Both the position numbers and the translations under genes were made by a program. Below, one piece after another: positions 8,430 through 45,528 of a stretch of 64,000 bases of DNA (position 1 is its first letter; every line of letters begins with the position of its first letter). The DNA is taken from the NCBI GenBank assembly GCA_020248945.1, contig JADCGQ010000058.1, positions 19,189 to 83,188 on the forward strand. Reading direction: 5' to 3'. The notes under the pieces were generated by a model. That model did no database searches, was not told the origin of the DNA, and was given only the letters and a program-made list of their open reading frames with translations. This DNA is from Rubrivivax sp. Lineage in GTDB: Bacteria; Pseudomonadota; Gammaproteobacteria; Burkholderiales; Burkholderiaceae_C.

Positions 8430-10225
8430 GGCGTATCGGTGGCAAGGTCTTCGAGCAGCCGCTGGAACGCGGCCACGCAGAGCTCGGTGTCGTCGGCGGT
8501 GATGGTCTCGAGCGGGTTGTGGCTGATGCCCGAGTTGCCACCGCGCATGAAGAGCATCGCCTGCGGCATGCGCTCGTGCAGCTTCATCGCGTCGTGGCCG
8601 GCGCCGCTGGGCATGCAGAACACCGGCAGGCCCAGGGCCTGCACCGCCCGCTCCCAGCGCGCCTGCCAGGCCGGGTGGCTGGGCGCGGCCGAGGCGGCCA
8701 TCGTGGGCTCGAGCGTGAAGGCCAGGCCGCGGCGCTCGCAGATGCGCGCCAGTGCGGTCTTCACATCAGCCGCGAGCGCGTCGCGCGCGGCGTTGGTGGT
8801 GGCGCGCAGGTCGAGGCTGAAGCGGCAGCGGCCGGGCACGACGTTGATGCTGCCGGCGGGCACCTCGAGCTGGCCCACCGTGCCCACCACATCAGGCACC
8901 GAGCCGGCGCGCTGTTCCACAAACAGCACCAGCTCGGCCACGGCCGCCGCGGCATCGCGCCGGCGGTCCATGGGCGTGGTGCCGGCGTGGCTGGCCATGC
9001 CCTGCACCTCGCCGAGGTAGCGCACGCTGCCGTTGATGCTGGTGACCACGCCCAGCGGCAGATCCAGCTCGTTGAGCACGGGGCCCTGCTCGATGTGCAC
9101 CTCGACGAAGCCCAGGTAGCGGGCGGGGTCGCGCTCGAGCGCGGCGATGGACTCCAGCGTGCCGGGCAGGCCCGCGGCCTGCATCGCCTCGCGCATCGTC
9201 ACGCCATCGGCATCGCGCTGTTCGAGCCAGGCCGCATCGAAGCCGCCGACCAGCGCGCCGCTGGCCAAGAAGGTGGCCTTGTAGCGCTGGCCCTCTTCTT
9301 CGGAGAAAGCCACCACCTCCAGACCGAAGGGCAGCCGCCGGCCGGCGGCCGACAGCTCGCGCACCACCGCCATCGGCACCAGGATGCCCAGGCGGCCGTC
9401 GTACTTGCCGCCATTGCGCACGGTGTCGAAGTGGCTGCCGGTCATCAGCCGCTTCGCCTGGGCGTCGCTGCCGTGATAGACACCGACGACGTTGCCTACG
9501 GCGTCGATCTCGACCTCGTCGAAGCCGCACTCCTTCATCCACCAGCGCAGCCGCTGCGCCACCTTGCGGTGGGCCTCGGTGAGGTAGGTCACCGTCAGCT
9601 GGCCCTTCTCGACGAAGCCCGGGTCGCTGTGCACGGCCAGTTCCTCGGCCCAGTCCCAGACGCGGCGCCCCCGCAGCGGCACGGCGCCGGGCTCGCCGGC
9701 AAAGCGGTCGGCCAGGCGGATCTCGGCGATGCGGTGGATGTTGCGCAGGCACTCCGCGAACTCGAAGTCCGGGTGCCCGGCCAGGCGCCGCGCGAAGGTG
9801 GCGATGATCTCGGCACGCGTCAGGCCCTCGCCGCGCGGGCCGCGCACGGCCAGGATGAAGGGCCAGCCGAACCGGGCGTTGTAGGCGGCGTTGAGCTGCT
9901 GCAGCTGCGCGAACTCGTCGGCCGAACAGTGCGTGAGGCCGGAGCGGGTTTGCTCGTCGGTGCTCTCGGCCGTGAGCGACTTCGCCACCATCGCCTTGCC
10001 CGCCAGTTCGGGGTGGGCGCGGATGAGCCCGAGCTGCGCCTCGCGCCCGGCCTCGCGCACCGCCTGCACGAGTGCGTGCTTCAGCGCCGCCAGGCTGGCG
10101 TGGCCCGCGGCCGGGCGGGCGCGAAAGGCCGCCGCGGCGATCCAGGGCGAGTGCTCGTAGATGCCGTCGAGCAGCGCCACGAAGCCGGCTTCGTCGGCGC
10201 TGCGGAGCTCGTGCAGGGTGGTCAT
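8426..10225 (-). CDS. fusion protein: N-terminal OHCU decarboxylase (UraD) + C-terminal allantoate amidohydrolase (AllC, M20)
   Basis: N-terminal part: LLDGIYEHSPWIA...IRAHPELAGK (OHCU decarboxylase). C-terminal part: GNVVGVYHG...TGSHFDTVRNGGKYDGRLG...EEEGQRY (allantoate amidohydrolase/carbamoylase). Start MTTLHEL at 10225. Confidence 0.85.
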   Translation of the reverse strand: MTTLHELRSADEAGFVALLDGIYEHSPWIAAAAFRARPAAGHASLAALKHALVQAVREAGREAQLGLIRAHPELAGKAMVAKSLTAESTDEQTRSGLTHCSADEFAQLQQLNAAYNARFGWPFILAVRGPRGEGLTRAEIIATFARRLAGHPDFEFAECLRNIHRIAEIRLADRFAGEPGAVPLRGRRVWDWAEELAVHSDPGFVEKGQLTVTYLTEAHRKVAQRLRWWMKECGFDEVEIDAVGNVVGVYHGSDAQAKRLMTGSHFDTVRNGGKYDGRLGILVPMAVVRELSAAGRRLPFGLEVVAFSEEEGQRYKATFLASGALVGGFDAAWLEQRDADGVTMREAMQAAGLPGTLESIAALERDPARYLGFVEVHIEQGPVLNELDLPLGVVTSINGSVRYLGEVQGMASHAGTTPMDRRRDAAAAVAELVLFVEQRAGSVPDVVGTVGQLEVPAGSINVVPGRCRFSLDLRATTNAARDALAADVKTALARICERRGLAFTLEPTMAASAAPSHPAWQARWERAVQALGLPVFCMPSGAGHDAMKLHERMPQAMLFMRGGNSGISHNPLETITADDTELCVAAFQRLLEDLATDTP

Positions 10226-38510: not shown

Positions 38511-40364
38511 ATGTCCCACACCGCCCACCCCCTCGACGAGTTGCTGCTGGCGCACCTGCGCGCCTTCCTGCCCGACGCCGACGAGCCCACGCTGGCCCAG
38601 CTCCGGCACGAGCTCGACTGGATCGAGCTGCCGGCCGGCGCCGTGCTGATGCGCCAGGGCGACCCGGGCGACGCCATGTACATGCTGGCCAGCGGCCGGC
38701 TGCGCGTGAGCATCACCGGCGCCGATGGCGAGGAGCGCGTGGTGCGCGAGATCACGCGCGGCCAGGTGGTGGGCGAAATGAGCCTGGTCACCGACGAGCC
38801 GCGCTCGGCCACGCTGGTGGCGATGCGCGATTCGGTGCTGGCGCGGCTGACCCGGCCGGCCTTCGACCTGCTGTTCCGCCAGCATCCGGCGGTGTCGATG
38901 GCGCTCACGCGGCAGATCGTCGCGCGGCTGCAGACCCAGGGCCGAGGGGTGCGGCCCGACCGGCCCGTCGTCATCGCGCTGCTGCCGCTGGGCGGCCGCT
39001 TCGATGCCAGGGCGGCAGCCGCGCTGGTCGAAGGCCTGACTGCTGAGCTGGCGCGCCACGGGCGTGTGGCCCGGCTCGACGCCGCGGCGATGGCCGCGCG
39101 CCTGGGCCACGTGCCCGGTGACGACAGCGAATCGGTGCGCCGCATGGCCGTGGTGCTGGACGAGATCGAGACCACGCACGACCTGGTGCTGCTGCTGGCC
39201 GACGCCGGCCCCACTCCCTGGACCCGCTGCTGCGCGCGCCAGGGCGATGAGGTGCTGCTGCTGGCGCACGCCGACGACGAGTCCGCGCCCGGCGCCATCG
39301 AGCAGGCCTGCGGCCTGACCGGCAGCCAGGCGCGTGCGGCACCGACCACCGTGCTGGTGCTGGTGCACCCCGAGGGCCGCCGCGGCCCCACCGGCAGCGC
39401 GCGCTGGCACGCGGGGCGCCAGCTGCGGGCGCTCGTGCACCTGCGCCAGGGTCACGCGCCCGACGTGGCGCGGCTGGCCCGCCTGCTCGGACGGCGCGGC
39501 GTGGGCCTGGTGCTCTCGGGCGGCGGCGCGCGCGGCGCGGCTCACGTGGGCGCCTACCGCGCGCTGCAGGAGCACGGCGTGCCGCTCGACGCCATCGGCG
39601 GCACCAGCATGGGCGCCGTGTTCGGCGCCGTGATGGCCTTCGACACCACGGCCGATGAGTTGCACGACACCTTCGCGCGCCACTTCGCCGACAACCCGAC
39701 CGGCGACTTCACGCTGTTTCCGATGCTCGGACTGATCAAGGCGCGGCGGCTGCTGGGCATGATGGAGCGCACCGAGCGCCGCTTCGGCGCCGCCGCGGGC
39801 CTGGACATCCAGGACCTCTGGAAGCCCTACTTCTGCATCGCCACCAACTACTCGCGCGCCACCGAACTGGTGCTCGACCGCGGCCCGCTGGTGCCGGCCG
39901 TGATGGCCACCTGCGCCATCCCCGGCGCCATGCCGCCGGTCCTGCGCGACGGCGATCTGCTGTGTGACGGCGGCGTGTTCAACAACCTGCCCGTCGACGT
40001 GATGCGCAACACCTGGGGCATCGGCCACATCATCGGCGTCGACCTCGGGCTGGCTCTGCCGCGCCGCATCGAACTCGACGCCCTGCCCACGCCGTGGCAA
40101 CTGGTGCGCGACCGCCTGCGCCCGAAGCGCCAGCGCCGCTACCGGCTGCCCACGCTGCCAAACTACCTGATGAACGTGACGGCGCTGTACGGCACCGCGC
40201 GCCAGCGCGCCGCCGCGGCCGAGGCCGACCTCGTGCTGAGCCCCGCACTGCCGCGCATCGGCATGCTGCAGTGGAAGCGCTATGCCGAGGCGGTGCAGGT
40301 GGGCTACGACGAGACGCAGCGCGCGCTCGCCGCGGCCGGCGGCTGGCTGCGGCGCGGGCCGTAG
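38511..40364 (+). CDS. cyclic-nucleotide-binding domain + patatin-like phospholipase (NTE-like)
   Basis: cNMP domain: GDPGDAMYMLASGRLRV...GEMSL..EPRSATLVA. Patatin motifs: GGGARGAAHVG, GTSMGA and DGG. Confidence 0.85.
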   Translation: MSHTAHPLDELLLAHLRAFLPDADEPTLAQLRHELDWIELPAGAVLMRQGDPGDAMYMLASGRLRVSITGADGEERVVREITRGQVVGEMSLVTDEPRSATLVAMRDSVLARLTRPAFDLLFRQHPAVSMALTRQIVARLQTQGRGVRPDRPVVIALLPLGGRFDARAAAALVEGLTAELARHGRVARLDAAAMAARLGHVPGDDSESVRRMAVVLDEIETTHDLVLLLADAGPTPWTRCCARQGDEVLLLAHADDESAPGAIEQACGLTGSQARAAPTTVLVLVHPEGRRGPTGSARWHAGRQLRALVHLRQGHAPDVARLARLLGRRGVGLVLSGGGARGAAHVGAYRALQEHGVPLDAIGGTSMGAVFGAVMAFDTTADELHDTFARHFADNPTGDFTLFPMLGLIKARRLLGMMERTERRFGAAAGLDIQDLWKPYFCIATNYSRATELVLDRGPLVPAVMATCAIPGAMPPVLRDGDLLCDGGVFNNLPVDVMRNTWGIGHIIGVDLGLALPRRIELDALPTPWQLVRDRLRPKRQRRYRLPTLPNYLMNVTALYGTARQRAAAAEADLVLSPALPRIGMLQWKRYAEAVQVGYDETQRALAAAGGWLRRGP

Positions 40365-40386
40365 CGGCCGGACACCGAGCAACCCC

Positions 40387-40587
40387 TCAGGCCACCCGCG
40401 CGAGCAGCCTGGCCAGCGGCACCGTCAGCGCCAGCAGTGCCATGTACCGCAGCGTCAGCGCCACGCTGCGCAGCACGCGCGCCCACCAGCGCCCGCCGTA
40501 GACACGGCTGCCGGCCATCAGCGTGTACACCGCCATCACGGCCACGCCGATCCAGGCCCACGGCGCCTGCAGCAGGTTCTTGCCCAC
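40387..40587 (-). CDS. possible 66-aa two-TM membrane peptide
   Basis: GTG start, very high GC3 and two hydrophobic segments. There is no obvious SD, and the palindrome GCGGCAGCTGCCGC lies just upstream. Confidence 0.35.
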   Translation of the reverse strand: MGKNLLQAPWAWIGVAVMAVYTLMAGSRVYGGRWWARVLRSVALTLRYMALLALTVPLARLLARVA

Positions 40588-40639
40588 AGACAGGGCAGAA
40601 CGACGGGCGCGGATCGGGCAGCGGCAGCTGCCGCCGCGG

Positions 40640-41068
40640 TCAGATCAGCTCTTCCATCGTCAGCAGCCGGTAGTGCACCGCCAGTGTCGCGCCGCCGTCG
40701 CGGGCGATGGCGGCCGCTTCCACGGCCTGCGGGTTGTCGTCCACCTTCACCAGGCACCAGCCGTAGCCCTGCTGCGCCAGTTCGACATAACGCCCTGGCA
40801 GGGTAACTTCATGGCCAAAGTCGGCCAAGGGGCCCGGGTCGTCGGTCATGGCCCGCAACTGCGCCAGGCTCTCGCCCGGGTTGAAGCGCAGCACGGTCGC
40901 GTCGGTCCAGCCAGCGGCGAGCAGCGCCTGCTCCAGCGTGTCGGCCAGCGCCGGGCTCGGCAGTCCTACCATCAGCCAGCCCACGGGCTTGAAGAGACCG
41001 AACCACGTGGGCACGTCGCCGATGGTCGACGACCCCAGCTCAGGGGCATCGTGCAGGGCGTTGGTCAT
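40640..41068 (-). CDS. hypothetical 142-aa protein
   Basis: Good codon bias. It starts 10 nt after the OmpA-like gene stop. I recognise no family. Confidence 0.65.
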   Translation of the reverse strand: MTNALHDAPELGSSTIGDVPTWFGLFKPVGWLMVGLPSPALADTLEQALLAAGWTDATVLRFNPGESLAQLRAMTDDPGPLADFGHEVTLPGRYVELAQQGYGWCLVKVDDNPQAVEAAAIARDGGATLAVHYRLLTMEELI

Positions 41069-41077
41069 GACGCGGCC

Positions 41078-41779
41078 TCAGCCCTGAGGCTCGCTGAGGA
41101 ACAGCTCGACGCGCCGGTTGCGTGCGCGGCCGTTCTCGCTGCCGTTGTCGGCCAGCGGCTCGCGCGAACCGCGGCCGACCACGTCCATGCGGCTGGTCGG
41201 CACGCCACGGTCCTGCAGGTGATCGCGCACCGCGCGGGCCCGCTCCTGCGACAGCGGGTCGTTGATGGCATCGCTGCCGGTGCTGTCGGTGTGGCCGATG
41301 ATGCGCACCTGCATGCTGGCATCCAGCCCCTCGGCGAAGCGGTCGAGCACACGGCCGGTGCCAGGCTGCAGCATGGCGCTGCCGGTGGCGAAGCTGAGGT
41401 CGGCGGGCACGTTCACGCGCAGCCGGTTGTCGGCCGTTCGCGCGACCTCGATGCCGGTGCCGGCGGTGGCGGCCTCGAGATCCTTGCGCTTGTCTTCCAT
41501 GCGCTTGGACCACAGGTTGCCGGCGATGGCACCCAATGCGCTGCCGATCACCGCGCTACGGCCGGCATTGCCGCCGGTGACGCCTCCGAGCACCGCGCCA
41601 GCCACGGCGCCCACGCCGGCGCCCTGGGCGGTGCCCGTCTGGCGGGCGCTCATGTTCTCGCAACCCGCGAGCGCGACGCCGGCCAGCAGCACGGCGGCGA
41701 GCCGAAGCGGTGTCTGCAGGCGTGTGGCTGGGTGAGGGACCGGCTGAAAGCCCGGCTGCGATCGGTGAGTGCGGTTCAT
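41078..41779 (-). CDS. OmpA-family lipoprotein with glycine-zipper N-region
   Basis: Lipobox LAGVALAGC. Glycine zipper GAGVGAVAGAVLGGVTGG..GSALGAIAG. OmpA_C motifs FATGSAML, GHTDSTGS..N..LS..RA and NRRVE. GGAGA SD upstream. Confidence 0.85.
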   Translation of the reverse strand: MNRTHRSQPGFQPVPHPATRLQTPLRLAAVLLAGVALAGCENMSARQTGTAQGAGVGAVAGAVLGGVTGGNAGRSAVIGSALGAIAGNLWSKRMEDKRKDLEAATAGTGIEVARTADNRLRVNVPADLSFATGSAMLQPGTGRVLDRFAEGLDASMQVRIIGHTDSTGSDAINDPLSQERARAVRDHLQDRGVPTSRMDVVGRGSREPLADNGSENGRARNRRVELFLSEPQG

Positions 41780-41866
41780 GGTGTCTCCGGCTTCGAGCGC
41801 GGATGGTTCGGAAACACCCTTGTAGCCACCGGCCAGCAGCTTGTCTGGCCGCTGTCGCACACAGCG

Positions 41867-41888
41867 CGGCGGGGCTTGCTGCCCGCCG
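41867..41888 (-). terminator. GC-rich hairpin 18 nt after the 32-codon ORF (possible attenuator/terminator; no U-tract)
   Basis: On the minus strand the sequence reads CGGCGGG-CAGCAAGC-CCCGCCG. Confidence 0.25.
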
Positions 41889-41905
41889 GTCTGCCGCTCA
41901 GTAAG

Positions 41906-42004
41906 CTACAGCCATACCCACAGTTGGCGCAGCCAACCAGGGGTTCGAAAGCGCGACGGGCGGTAGTGTTGGCGCAGGCCTTGGGGGTTCAAGCGGTCGT
42001 GCAT
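41906..42004 (-). CDS. candidate SOS-regulated 32-aa peptide
   Basis: Below the track cutoff. GAGGAG lies 7 nt before ATG (42004..42002), and the stop is TAG at 41908..41906. The peptide is MHDRLNPQGLRQHYRPSRFRTPGWLRQLWVWL. Confidence 0.45.
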   Translation of the reverse strand: MHDRLNPQGLRQHYRPSRFRTPGWLRQLWVWL

Positions 42005-42026
42005 GGCGGGGCTCCTCGAAGAGGGT

Positions 42027-42055
42027 ACTGTATGCACATACAGCCCTCTTTGCAA
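42027..42055 (-). promoter_or_regulatory. sigma70-type promoter (-35 TTGCAA, 17-nt spacer, -10 TACAGT)
   Basis: Read on the minus strand: the -35 is at 42055..42050 and the -10 at 42032..42027. It lies immediately after the arsA stop. Confidence 0.55.
42028..42043 (-). promoter_or_regulatory. LexA binding site (SOS box) CTGTATGTGCATACAG
   Basis: Perfect CTGT-N8-ACAG. The 20-mer GGCTGTATGTGCATACAGTA matches TACTGTATATATATACAGTA at 15/20 positions. It overlaps the spacer and the -10. Confidence 0.75.
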
Positions 42056-42060
42056 GCCAG

Positions 42061-43887
42061 CTAGGCGCGTGCGAGCCGACTCAACTCGGCCACGCCCACC
42101 GGCGGCGTGGCCAGCCAGGGCAACGCGAACAGCCGCTTCGCCAGGCCGCCCTGCAGCCGCCCAATCTGCCGCCGTTCACCGGCCAGCCGCGCGGCGAGCA
42201 GCGGGTCGTGCGTGCCGGCGGCGAGCACGCTCTTGTTCAGCAGCCAGGCATAGGGCTCGATGTGCGCGCGGCGCAGGTCGTCCTGCAGCGCGGCAGCCTG
42301 CGACACCGGCGTGGCCTCGGGCAGCGTGACGAGGATGATCTTCGTCGTGCTGCCATCCTGCAGCCGCATCAGCGGCGTCACGACACGGGCCGCGCCGTGG
42401 CCTTCGAACTCGCGCGTCATCTGGCGGTGGTAGGCACCGGTGGCGTCCATCAGCAGCATCGAGTGCCCCGTGGGCGCGGTGTCGAGCACGACGAAGGCGC
42501 TGCGCGCCTCGCTGACGATGCGCGAGAAGGCGTGGAACACCGCCACCTCCTCGGTGCAGGGCGACTGCAAGTCTTCGAGCAGCAGCGCCTGCTCCTGCGC
42601 ATCGAGCCGCGGCGCCTTGGCGGCCATGATCTTGTCGATGTAGCGCCGGGTTTCGACGGCGGGGTCGATGCGGCTGACGCGCAGGCCGTCGACGGGGCCA
42701 TCGGCGCTGCCGTTCAGCGTGTCGGCCAGGTGCGCCGCCGGGTCGGTGGTGCTCAGGTGCACGCTGTGCCCGCGCTGCACCAGGCCCAGCGCCAGCGCGG
42801 CGGCGATGGTGGTCTTGCCGACGCCGCCCTTGCCCATCACCATGACCAGGCCGTGCCCGGCGGCGGCCAGTTCGTCGGCCAGTGCCGCCAACCCGGGCAG
42901 GGCCGCGGCGTCGGCCGCGGCCGGGGCAGCGGCGGCGGCCGGCAGCGCCGGGCCGGCACCCGGCTGCAGCAGTGCGCGCAGGGCCGGCAGGCCCACGGTG
43001 TCGAAGGCGCGCAGCGGCACCTGGTCCTGCGGCTGCGCGCGCAGCACCGCCGGCAGTTCGGCCAGGGCCTGCTGGCCGAGGGCTTCGATGGCCAGCGCCA
43101 CCGCGTCATCGCGTGCGCTGGCGTGGAAGACGCCGTTGATGGCCAGGCGCTGGTTGTCCAGCCCCAGCGTGCGCAGTTCCACCGAGGTGCGCGCGGCCTC
43201 GGCAATGGCGCCGCGCTCGGGCCGCGTCACCAGCACCACGGTGGTCTGGGCGGCATCGCCCAGGGCGTCGAGCGCGGCCTGGAAGCGCGCCTCCTGCATC
43301 TTCAGGCCCGAGTGCGGGCCCAGGCACGAGGCACCACGGTCGTTGTCGCGCAGGAAACCCGTCCAGGCCTTGGGCAGGCTCAGGAGCCGCAGCGTGTGGC
43401 CGGTGGGTGCGGTGTCGAAGACGACGTGGTCCCAGGCGGCGGCCGCGTCGGCCAGCAGCGACGAGAACTCGTCGAACGAGGCGATCTCGGTGGTGCAGGC
43501 GCCGGAGAGCTGCTCGCGCACCGTGGCCCGCTCGTCGGCGCTGGCGCCCTCGCCCATCTGAGCCAGCACACGCTGGCGGTAGGACTCGGCCGCCACGTCG
43601 GGGTCGATGTTCAGCACCGCGAGGCCCGGCGCGCCCGGCACCGGCACGGGCGTGTTGCGCAGCTCGATGCCGAGCATCTCGTCGAGGTTCGAGGCCGCGT
43701 CGGTGCTCACCAGCAGCACGCGGCGGCCGGCATCGGCCAGCGCCAGCGCGGTGGCGGTGGACAGCGAGGTCTTGCCGACGCCGCCCTTGCCGGTGAAAAA
43801 GAGGTGCCTCGTGGGCTGGTTGAGGAAGCCGACACGTGCGGCTGGATCATGCGGCGGGCTCGTGGCGGTGTTCATCTCACAGAGCAT
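42061..43887 (-). CDS. arsA: arsenite-stimulated ATPase ArsA (two-domain)
   Basis: Two P-loops: GKGGVGKTS and GKGGVGKTT. The three metalloid-binding Cys contexts are conserved: SGACTTEIASFDEF, GASCLGP and SPCTEEVAVFHAF. An alternative start MNTATS lies at 43875. Confidence 0.9.
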   Translation of the reverse strand: MLCEMNTATSPPHDPAARVGFLNQPTRHLFFTGKGGVGKTSLSTATALALADAGRRVLLVSTDAASNLDEMLGIELRNTPVPVPGAPGLAVLNIDPDVAAESYRQRVLAQMGEGASADERATVREQLSGACTTEIASFDEFSSLLADAAAAWDHVVFDTAPTGHTLRLLSLPKAWTGFLRDNDRGASCLGPHSGLKMQEARFQAALDALGDAAQTTVVLVTRPERGAIAEAARTSVELRTLGLDNQRLAINGVFHASARDDAVALAIEALGQQALAELPAVLRAQPQDQVPLRAFDTVGLPALRALLQPGAGPALPAAAAAPAAADAAALPGLAALADELAAAGHGLVMVMGKGGVGKTTIAAALALGLVQRGHSVHLSTTDPAAHLADTLNGSADGPVDGLRVSRIDPAVETRRYIDKIMAAKAPRLDAQEQALLLEDLQSPCTEEVAVFHAFSRIVSEARSAFVVLDTAPTGHSMLLMDATGAYHRQMTREFEGHGAARVVTPLMRLQDGSTTKIILVTLPEATPVSQAAALQDDLRRAHIEPYAWLLNKSVLAAGTHDPLLAARLAGERRQIGRLQGGLAKRLFALPWLATPPVGVAELSRLARA

Positions 43888-43911
43888 GCGCCTCTTTGGC
43901 GCGGGCGTCTG

Positions 43912-45408
43912 TCAAGGCCGCGCCGGCTCGAAACGCCGATCGATCAGGTCGGCCTCATCGAAGTGCCGCTGCCCGACAAAGGCCGTGGCGTGGTGGCCCC
44001 ACTGCCGCATCGCACCGGCGCTGGCAATGCCCATCGGCCAGAACAGGACGCGCTCGCCGCGCTCGGTGCCGGCCACCAGGCCATCGGGGCCGTACAGGCT
44101 GCGGCGGCCGCTGGGCGTGGGCAGCGAACGCAGGGCCTCCTCGGGCTGCAGCGTGTACGTCTCGGCTGCCAGCGTCGCCCGCGGCAGCGTCTGCAGGCCC
44201 ATCACGTAGTGCGTGGCCGAGGCCAGCCGCACCACCAGGCGTTGCGCGGGCGCCAGCGGCGGCAGCGGCGCAGGGGCGAACAGCCACTCCTCGAAGCGCG
44301 GCCCACCGTCGCGCGGCCGCAGCGTGGCGGCCGGGAAAAACAGGTGGTAGCAGCCGCAGGCGTGGATGGTGTCCAGCAGCAGCGGCTGGCCGTGCTCGTC
44401 GAGCGTCAGGCGCAGCACGACGCCGTCCAGCGCGCCGGCCAGCAGATCGAAGGCCGAACTCGCCGGCCGCTCGGGGAACCACAGCGTGTAGCTGAGCTGC
44501 AGCAGCCAGAGCCCGCCCACACGCGTGTGCGACAGGCGCTGGTAGACCACCGGCGCGGCCGTGTCCACGCGCGGCGGGCCGGCCTCGGGCCAGGCCAGGG
44601 CGCCGAAACGGTCGGGGCTGCCGAGGGCCTCGATCTCGAACACCGGCGCGTGCCAGGCGAACAACTGCGCCGCGTGGGCCGGCGTGGGCTGCGGCAGGCC
44701 GAGCGCGTCGGTGGCGGGTGGCCAGGGCGGCGGCTGCTCGCGCGCCCGCGTAGCGGCCGCGGGGCCGACGCGGTGCAGGCGCGGGGGCTGCGTGGCCCAG
44801 CGCGCCATCTCGGCCGCGTGCTGCTTCTGCCAGCCCTGCACGCCGGCAAAAAACGGCCAGCGCACCAGCGGGTACAGGCCGAGCGCGCGGCCGGCGGTGC
44901 TGTAGCGCGCGGGCACGGTGGCGCGTTCGAGCAGCGCGGCGCGCAGCGGCTGCGCCGAGGGAGCGAGCAGCTGCTGCACGGCGCGGTGGCGGCAGTCGTG
45001 CGTGCGCGCCGAGGCCTCGACCGCGCCGGCCGGGCCCAGCGCGGCTGCCGGCAGGTTGGCGATCTCGGCCGCGCGCGCGGCGTCGTCGAGCGCGGCGGCA
45101 CGCTGCACCCAGGCCGCGAATGCGGCGTCGCTCTGGCGGGCCTCGTCGCGCAAGGCCATGCCGGTGCGGTCGACGCGCAGGCCCGCAAAGCCGGCGATGC
45201 GCTCGGCCTCGGCATCGGCCACCTGCGCCGTGGCCACGGCGTCGTCCAGGCGGGCCAGCCAGGCGTGGCAGCCGGCTTCGTCGGCCCAGGCGGGCGCACT
45301 CGTCGGCGCGCCGGGCAAGGTGCTGCAGCCTGGCAGGGCCAGCAGGGCGAAAACGACCCCGCCGCCACCCAGCACGCGGCGCCAGCAGAGGAAGCGCGAG
45401 GAACGCAT
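43912..45408 (-). CDS. 498-aa lipoprotein of unknown function
   Basis: Start MRSSRFLC... with lipobox LLALPGC. Good codon bias. It lies 24 nt upstream of arsA (track start 43887). I recognise no family. Confidence 0.7.
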   Translation of the reverse strand: MRSSRFLCWRRVLGGGGVVFALLALPGCSTLPGAPTSAPAWADEAGCHAWLARLDDAVATAQVADAEAERIAGFAGLRVDRTGMALRDEARQSDAAFAAWVQRAAALDDAARAAEIANLPAAALGPAGAVEASARTHDCRHRAVQQLLAPSAQPLRAALLERATVPARYSTAGRALGLYPLVRWPFFAGVQGWQKQHAAEMARWATQPPRLHRVGPAAATRAREQPPPWPPATDALGLPQPTPAHAAQLFAWHAPVFEIEALGSPDRFGALAWPEAGPPRVDTAAPVVYQRLSHTRVGGLWLLQLSYTLWFPERPASSAFDLLAGALDGVVLRLTLDEHGQPLLLDTIHACGCYHLFFPAATLRPRDGGPRFEEWLFAPAPLPPLAPAQRLVVRLASATHYVMGLQTLPRATLAAETYTLQPEEALRSLPTPSGRRSLYGPDGLVAGTERGERVLFWPMGIASAGAMRQWGHHATAFVGQRHFDEADLIDRRFEPARP

Positions 45409-45528
45409 GTCACAAGCTACCACGGCGGCCCGGTGGGCGACCCATCGAGCTTCAGCTGGCCTGGCACCCGCCCCGTCTCAGAGCCAGTGCAGCGTTCAGG
45501 CGGGTGTGGCGGTTTGCGTCGCAGGCCC

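Follow-up and report, generated by a model that had tools for sequence, protein, structure and literature searches.

A predicted LexA-operated small-protein gene in Rubrivivax sp. and the family to which it belongs

The subject of this analysis is a short element within a stretch of 64,000 nucleotides from Rubrivivax sp. (hereafter the window). Read on the minus strand from 42055 to 41906, this element is very probably a self-contained SOS gene, in which a LexA-operated promoter would drive a small gene of 32 codons. From sequence comparisons, LexA control of a genuine small-protein gene belonging to a new family is strongly supported. The regulatory logic is that of the textbook; for the gene family, and for a partner gene found beside it in other lineages, no description was found in the literature searched or among curated models.

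The promoter, operator, Shine-Dalgarno (SD) and open reading frame (ORF) elements were taken from the minus-strand read, with all positions referring to the window (Table 1), and agree base for base with the layout proposed in a first-pass annotation of this DNA. The ATG of the small ORF occupies 42004–42002 and its TAG stop codon 41908–41906. Direct reading also confirmed the perfect CTGT-N8-ACAG palindrome described there and the identity, at 15 out of 20 positions, of the 20-mer GGCTGTATGTGCATACAGTA with the E. coli-type consensus TACTGTATATATATACAGTA. The LexA box of most beta- and gamma-Proteobacteria is CTGTatatatatACAG (PMC3108266). The operator covers the spacer and the -10 hexamer of TTGCAA-17-TACAGT, a promoter predicted from sequence; this geometry, too, had been described, and it recurs in family members from unrelated contexts. 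Occurrence of the bare CTGT-N8-ACAG pattern is not significant taken alone, with one instance in the window, 0.63 expected, and at least one in 45 out of 100 shuffles. The extended form CTGKAT-N4-RTACAGT was found once, against 0.00 expected in 100 shuffles.

Homology searches placed the peptide in a conserved family. A word-index search returned 13 clusters of 31–41 amino acids with variable N-termini and a common core (LRQHYRPSR, P, WLRQLW, W), a hidden Markov model (HMM) scan of 1.84 billion cluster representatives gave 44 matches, and a profile search of a set of 5.8 billion sequences gave 104 clusters. The family spans 23–52 amino acids, contains at least 104 clusters at 90% identity and is found in Rubrivivax, Roseateles, Methylibium and many metagenomes. 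It is widespread in the Burkholderiales, and the description of the peptide as lineage-specific was too narrow. All members are unnamed or carry the label ‘hypothetical protein’ in public data; only TDP74449.1 from Roseateles toxinivorans has an accession. Searches of Pfam, NCBIfam, PADLOC and the PDB with the small ORF and its homologues gave no significant match, and neither the peptide motif nor a description of the family was found within the limited body of papers searched, in line with the earlier remark that the ORF is not a described SOS gene.

The family core reads [LF]RQxY[RQ]P-x4-6-P-x-WL[RK]x[LVI]WxW[LF]-COOH, and R11, Y14, P16, P22, W24, W29 and W31 are invariant in an alignment of 33 sequences. 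Both the length and the sequence of the N-terminus differ between members, with the frame and the stop codon retained. Several apparently longer database entries are due to mis-called starts, the extension being an in-frame translation of the LexA box (...LYGYTV..., ...LYEYTV..., ...YCIFIQY...).

The substitution pattern indicates that the small ORF is a genuine gene under protein-level selection. Over 24 conserved codons, the window differs from locus L092 by seven synonymous and no non-synonymous changes, and from L084 by ten synonymous and two non-synonymous ones (L-numbers denote comparison loci holding homologues of window genes). Nucleotide changes in the conserved codons cluster at third positions, and family members use two to five alternative codons for the invariant Pro, Arg, Tyr and Leu residues. 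In 52 out of 57 members an SD-like motif is present at -18 to -4, compared with 8.5% at control positions. Given this conservation at the protein level, the small ORF is presumably translated.

To compare upstream regions, the sample was widened by running a DNA pattern covering the C-terminal nine codons and the stop over metagenome contigs, which yielded 57 distinct members with flanking sequence. Of these, 53 carry CTG-N10-CAG within 90 nt 5′ of the ATG, against a background of 2.3% per window of this kind in the same contigs (binomial p ~1e-81). The box consensus over the family is TACTGTATGTATATACAGTA. At positions not fixed by the search pattern, A is found at 15 in 51, T at 19 in 50 and T at 8 in 48 of the 53 boxes; these positions recreate the canonical E. 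coli-type consensus and hence count as support for conservation of the operator. The box lies most often at -39 from the ATG, TTGC stands exactly 12 nt 5′ of the box CTG in 36 of the 53 members, and [AG]TACAGT forms the box end in 39. The resulting layout, CTTGC[AG]-N7-CTG[TG]AT...[AG]TACAGT, precedes the small ORF in relatives with differing surroundings. The same pattern over viral contigs, run as a specificity control, gave 24 matches and no family member, which indicates that the gene is not phage-borne and disfavours a prophage origin; among plasmids and phages, tblastn with a consensus peptide returned nothing.

Nine members (eight, and L229) carry tandem boxes 2 nt apart, of which the distal one overlaps the -35 TTGCA. 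Such a double operator suggests very tight repression in some lineages. Tandem LexA boxes are also present in tightly repressed colicin genes. Loci with this arrangement include L081, L087, L106, L143, L162, L193, L201 and L229. The contig of L160, which carries a family member, also holds imuA (NF033429, 203 bits) with CTGGATGTTTATACAG 22 nt 5′ of its start. That box (L160:9036-9075) stands as well at the start of a listed ORF of 364 amino acids on the opposite strand, for which there was no NCBIfam match, and may be a shared divergent SOS operator.

The window palindrome extends into AGAGGG...CCCTCT arms. These are not kept in L002 or L092, both of which keep the LexA core, and this favours a protein-binding site over an RNA hairpin. 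In L002 there is no arsA-like gene and a gene of 503 amino acids abuts the box directly; the box is therefore not part of arsA. A terminator or repetitive extragenic palindromic (REP) hairpin of the arsA-like gene was rejected because the flanks are unconserved and a T-run is missing. No terminator was called near the small ORF in the promoter and terminator scan, and an Rfam scan of 40000–44000 returned nothing relevant.

The basic N-terminal half and the Trp/Leu-rich tail noted at first reading are borne out: the window peptide has a net charge of +4.7 and an isoelectric point (pI) of 12.0, and the family ranges from +2.5 to +6.9 with a median of +4.6. Averaged over 19 residues, Kyte-Doolittle hydropathy peaks at -0.64 in the window peptide and nowhere exceeds 0.32 in the family, compared with 2.5 for TisB and DinQ; the family peptides have no transmembrane segment. 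The AlphaFold2 (AF2) model contains a single helix of nine residues (23–31), with a predicted local distance difference test score (pLDDT) of about 80 there and 65 overall, and is otherwise mostly disordered. The hydrophobic moment of the last ten residues has a family median of 0.62, compared with a shuffled mean of 0.41; the tails of FtsA and MinD reach 0.60 and 0.45. On a helical wheel, W24, L25, L28, W29, W31 and L/F32 would fall on one face flanked by R26 and R/Q27, and the sole variable residue (30) would lie in the polar face. Two further likenesses were considered and dismissed. The window C-terminus, QLWVWL, resembles a beta-clamp-binding motif (QL[SD]LF or QLxLx[LF]), but the Gln is unconserved, this position being R in 36, K in 6, S in 4 and Q in 11 of 57 members. 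The tail of FtsA from the same clade (L081, ...VKNLVGRAKDWFLGNF) has no sequence similarity to the peptide.

In other lineages a second small gene in the same orientation adjoins the small ORF, presumably within one LexA-controlled operon. It was found in 27 out of 53 evaluable loci, downstream in 24 and upstream in three. The three loci with an upstream partner are three of the four members that have no proximal box, and for two of these three, L170 and L173, a box is listed just 5′ of the partner gene. In Methylibium rhizosphaerae the box comes first, followed by the partner and then the small ORF, and the two genes overlap as ATGA. The partner product has 63–98 amino acids (about 70 as a rule) and the motif GVLRYVWE.R[FY]G.MLIEV..G..[FY]VNG..VE. 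Written more narrowly, the motif is GVLRYVWE.RFG.MLIEV.DG.AYVNG.RVE. Examples are located at L084:3121-3345, L105:4999-5196, L173:358-558 and L234:4001-4210. The partner family comprises at least 449 clusters, all annotated as ‘hypothetical’. Nothing significant was obtained for it in Pfam, NCBIfam, PADLOC or the PDB, the best Pfam hit being SH3_12 at E = 0.059. Its AF2 model (pLDDT 68) is a four-strand beta meander with disordered ends, and a Foldseek comparison of this model with the PDB returned nothing below E = 1. The median charge of the partner is -4.5, as against +4.6 for the small protein. The partner was not found in the window by hmmsearch over six frames (best E-value 0.26), nor is it adjacent in the closest relatives of the window or in 26 of the 53 evaluable loci.

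Table 1. Features of the element and of its neighbours in the window.
Feature	Position	Strand	Basis
-35 element TTGCAA, predicted promoter	42055-42050	minus	direct read; TTGC in relatives
Promoter spacer, 17 nt	42049-42033	minus	direct read
-10 element TACAGT, inside right operator half	42032-42027	minus	direct read; [AG]TACAGT in relatives
Predicted LexA operator, 20-mer GGCTGTATGTGCATACAGTA	42026-42045	strandless	sequence match; family conservation
16-bp operator core CTGTATGTGCATACAG	42043-42028	minus	perfect CTGT-N8-ACAG palindrome, AT-rich centre
Shine-Dalgarno motif GAGGAG, 9 nt past TACAGT, 7 nt before ATG	42017-42012	minus	direct read
Small protein gene, 32 codons + stop, product MHDRLNPQGLRQHYRPSRFRTPGWLRQLWVWL	41906-42004	minus	homologues; codon bias
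Stop codon TAG of arsA-like gene	42063-42061	minus	direct read
Two-domain ArsA-type ATPase gene	42061-43887	minus	5′ neighbour of small ORF
503-aa ORF	43912-45423	minus	no Pfam, NCBIfam or PADLOC match
YiaD-family glycine-zipper/OmpA-like lipoprotein gene	41078-41782	minus	NCBIfam NF053611, 208 bits; Pfam OmpA and Gly-zipper
142-aa ORF, 9 nt past lipoprotein gene	40640-41068	minus	no Pfam, NCBIfam or PADLOC match

The genes around the small ORF vary from locus to locus. An initial comparison was anchored on the lipoprotein gene and covered 80 loci in GTDB genomes (Rubrivivax, Ideonella, Roseateles, Sphaerotilus and others). Approached in this way, through the OmpA-like gene as the first-pass annotation had proposed, the small ORF was recovered in L001 and L002 only, but the LexA-type operator in L002 alone. 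Both loci belong to metagenome-assembled genomes of Rubrivivax sp. with 90–92% identity in the lipoprotein. Upstream of the other 77 lipoprotein homologues, the small ORF and an operator of this kind are both missing; near its start, L062 carries a single GC-rich CTGT-N8-ACAG. Approached through the small ORF itself, the box and ORF arrangement is kept in 53 out of 57 members, as described above. Clustering of stop-to-stop ORFs was also applied to the neighbours and was swamped by GC-rich spurious ORFs.

In the window, the downstream genes run convergently towards a patatin/cNMP-binding gene; ApbA-like, Metal_hydrol and katG genes stand before it on the plus strand. The lipoprotein gene is missing 3′ of the small ORF in L081, L087, L100, L226 and others. 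The patatin, Metal_hydrol and katG neighbours of the window recur in the first three of these loci, where the small ORF converges on them directly. The loci hence differ by an indel comprising the lipoprotein gene and the 142-aa ORF, most simply explained by a recent insertion in the lineage of the window. The 142-aa ORF is present in L001 and L092 and missing in L081 and L087. A homologue of it with 48% identity adjoins the lipoprotein gene, in divergent orientation, in Roseateles (L049). The spacer that separates the small ORF from the lipoprotein gene is conserved in the three closest relatives; no terminator is predicted in it and its fold is unremarkable (z = -1.0). Read-through in the window, by which the lipoprotein gene and the 142-aa ORF would be co-induced in the SOS response, is plausible on this basis. 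On the 5′ side, the box and the 503-aa ORF are separated by the ArsA-type ATPase gene in the window and in L092. This gene is missing in L002 (982–2700), the result of a recent indel. No ars genes were seen beside the ATPase gene among the ORFs examined in 30–50 kb.

Elsewhere the small ORF is surrounded by ftsA-ftsZ and a PEP-CTERM protein, or by genes for an HTH_31 regulator, ApbA, an amidase, an aminotransferase or an ornithine cyclodeaminase, and the genes downstream of it are unrelated between loci or convergent. In Roseateles toxinivorans (L226) a stem-loop with a T-run, which we read as an intrinsic terminator, follows directly 3′ of the small ORF. Because the flanking genes vary while the ORF stays, the small ORF appears to be the stand-alone, constant target of the operator. 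The alternative that the box serves only the downstream genes, which the first-pass annotation had kept in view, was rejected for the same reason, as was a Trp-codon attenuator or leader peptide.

Two other neighbourhoods contain genes of possible SOS relevance. In Roseateles L227 (5127–5720) and L228 (5127–5693), a gene of 188–197 amino acids starts 28 nt past the small ORF. Its product has two HxT motifs and resembles 2H-phosphoesterase/LigT proteins with a weak PF13563 match. The product also carries the canonical beta-clamp-binding pentapeptide QLSLF, at the very C-terminus in L228 and close to it in L227, and the gene is possibly a further SOS-linked one. In L188 an ORF lying just downstream of the small ORF (8950–9036), on the same strand, is S24 peptidase/UmuD-like when its translation is judged by eye (...RIVGDSMRDAGVDDGDLALVD...). 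If this is truly UmuD-like, the small ORF would head a mutagenesis operon.

Several observations weigh against the reading of the element as a LexA-controlled gene or against the function proposed for its product. The promoter hexamers are weak (8/12 in total), and the promoter was left uncalled by a sigma-70 scan in which they scored 4+4/12 against a threshold of 9. Retention of the operator across the family is not absolute, since L001, the closest locus by lipoprotein identity, kept the ORF and lost the left half of its proximal box. The metagenome pattern fixes W-L-x3-W-x-W, so that the invariance of those residues in that sample is partly circular; the HMM, word-index and profile searches are free of this circularity, and the N-terminal motif likewise counts as independent evidence. 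The tail of the window peptide has a hydrophobic moment of 0.45, near the shuffled mean, and the functional proposal draws on composition and on an AF2 model of low confidence (pLDDT 65). The partner, which some models would require, is missing from the window.

In L001 itself, unrelated, AT-richer sequence lies 5′ of the ORF (L001:100-220), with a degenerate proximal box, CCTTATGAATATACAG, and a second box, CTGGATGGGCATCCAG, located 86 nt 5′ of the ATG. The promoter region has thus been remodelled and the ORF retained.

The following sequence of events is proposed. A weak sigma-70-type promoter would have its spacer and -10 hexamer under a single high-quality LexA operator of the beta/gamma-proteobacterial type. 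In the undamaged cell a LexA dimer should block RNA polymerase, and upon DNA damage the RecA-stimulated self-cleavage of LexA would free the promoter; we infer these steps from the conserved architecture and the known behaviour of LexA. A transcript with a leader of about 16 nt and a strong SD motif would then give a strongly basic protein of 32 amino acids, made up of a variable N-terminus followed by the invariant core R-x2-Y-x-P...P-x-W-L-x3-W-x-W-[LF]-COOH. For the last ten or so residues a short amphipathic helix of Trp and Leu, edged by Arg, is predicted. In the window genome the same transcript probably continues through the recently inserted YiaD-like lipoprotein gene and 142-aa ORF.

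As to what the peptide does, we consider it an evenly balanced proposition that it is not an integral-membrane toxin but a small adaptor or inhibitor whose helix docks either onto a protein or onto the inner membrane face. Where the acidic, beta-rich protein of about 70 amino acids is adjacent, in some half of the lineages but not in the window, the peptide probably acts together with that protein or is buffered by it. Among specific roles we favour, tentatively, a brake acting on division or replication; an accessory role in repair or damage tolerance is speculative.

Such a brake would make the peptide a DNA-damage checkpoint effector comparable to SulA or SidA, a possible though doubtful assignment. 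The predicted SOS control of the small ORF, its small size, shared with SidA and SosA, and a C-terminal amphipathic helix like the membrane tethers of FtsA and MinD (moment 0.62, compared with 0.60 and 0.45) are consistent with it. No paper on the family was found in the literature searched, and to our knowledge no SOS division inhibitor has been described in this clade. The case is, however, purely analogical: linkage to ftsA-ftsZ occurs in one locus only (L081), and the likeness to a beta-clamp motif (Q-L-x-x-x-[LF]) fails, as R, K or S replaces Q in 46 of 57 members. More specifically, but with a somewhat lower expectation, the peptide may be a soluble or peripheral checkpoint effector of the Rubrivivax-Roseateles-Methylibium group whose Trp-rich helix blocks a division or replication protein. 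This effector would act with the acidic partner in many lineages, by a mechanism unlike that of SulA or of the transmembrane SidA, YneA and SosA. A membrane-damaging SOS toxin, either TisB/DinQ-like or akin to Arg/Trp-rich antimicrobial peptides, would instead depolarise the inner membrane and induce dormancy, with the acidic partner as its antidote. A near-consensus LexA box (in tandem in nine members), the Arg/Trp-rich amphipathic tail and a directly adjacent partner of opposite charge would suit a toxin, yet we judge it improbable. There is no transmembrane segment, and with a hydropathy maximum of 0.32 at most the family is far from the 2.5 of TisB and DinQ. Half of the lineages, the window included, have no adjacent partner, which is hard to square with an obligatory antidote. 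PADLOC, Pfam and NCBIfam gave no match, nor did an antisense RNA or any other hallmark of toxin-antitoxin systems come to light, with Rfam empty over 40000–44000 and antisense promoters not specifically searched.

The two remaining explanations deny the small ORF its role as the target of regulation. According to one of them the box serves the operon of the YiaD-like lipoprotein, and the small ORF is merely a leader peptide or upstream ORF, or is untranslated. The absence of a predicted terminator between the ORF and the lipoprotein gene, and the conservation of their spacer in the three closest relatives, fit this idea. It is nevertheless very unlikely: most family loci have no lipoprotein gene 3′ of the small ORF, the 77 further lipoprotein homologues lack both ORF and operator, the putative terminator in R. 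toxinivorans closes the unit directly after the small ORF, and the peptide is conserved up to its C-terminus. Least credible of all is that the palindrome arose by chance, or that it serves the arsA-like gene as a 3′ RNA hairpin or terminator. The bare pattern is indeed expected 0.63 times per window, and the extended palindrome folds with -23.9 kcal/mol (z = -1.9). Against this, the extended stem is unconserved in L002 and L092 while the LexA core is conserved, neither a T-run nor a terminator call was found, L002 keeps the box in the absence of the arsA-like gene, and box conservation across the family is far beyond chance (p ~1e-81).

SOS regulons are usually defined from annotated genes, and ORFs of about 30 codons are therefore missed. 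The near-universal LexA operator of this family is a stronger regulatory signature than that of many accepted SOS genes, and the family is a candidate for coupling DNA damage to the cell cycle or to damage tolerance in these Betaproteobacteria. Cultured isolates that carry it are Roseateles toxinivorans and Methylibium rhizosphaerae. In the window genome, SOS control was probably extended to an envelope lipoprotein gene when that gene was inserted 3′ of the small one.

Among known systems, the nearest in layout are tisB (with istR) and dinQ (with agrB) of E. coli, LexA-repressed genes for peptides of 27–29 amino acids, where likewise a tiny ORF stands behind a promoter overlapped by LexA; repression of TisB by LexA has been reported (PMC13159721). 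TisB and DinQ are single hydrophobic transmembrane helices (2.5 on the Kyte-Doolittle scale) under antisense RNA control, whereas the present family is hydrophilic, with a charge of about +4.6 and an amphipathic helix of nine residues, has no sequence similarity to them and often has a protein partner rather than an RNA partner. SidA of Caulobacter (29 amino acids), YneA of Bacillus and SosA of Staphylococcus are also small and clade-specific. They are DNA-damage-induced effectors or division inhibitors (PMC4211646, PMC6851548, PMC6051672), and DNA-damage control is predicted here as well. However, they are anchored by transmembrane segments and act on late divisome proteins, and this family has no such segment; the analogy with TisB, SidA and YneA drawn in the first-pass annotation is therefore not supported. 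SulA and DinI of E. coli, which bind FtsZ and RecA, respectively, are soluble effectors under tight control by LexA that act by protein binding, and it is in this respect that a likeness is proposed. With 169 and 81 amino acids they are much larger, folded and unrelated in sequence, whereas the peptide described here is mostly disordered. The C-terminal membrane-targeting helices of FtsA and MinD are likewise short, basic/aromatic and amphipathic, with a comparable moment, a matter of resemblance only. In FtsA and MinD the helix is appended to a large protein, whereas in the present peptide it makes up a third of the whole.

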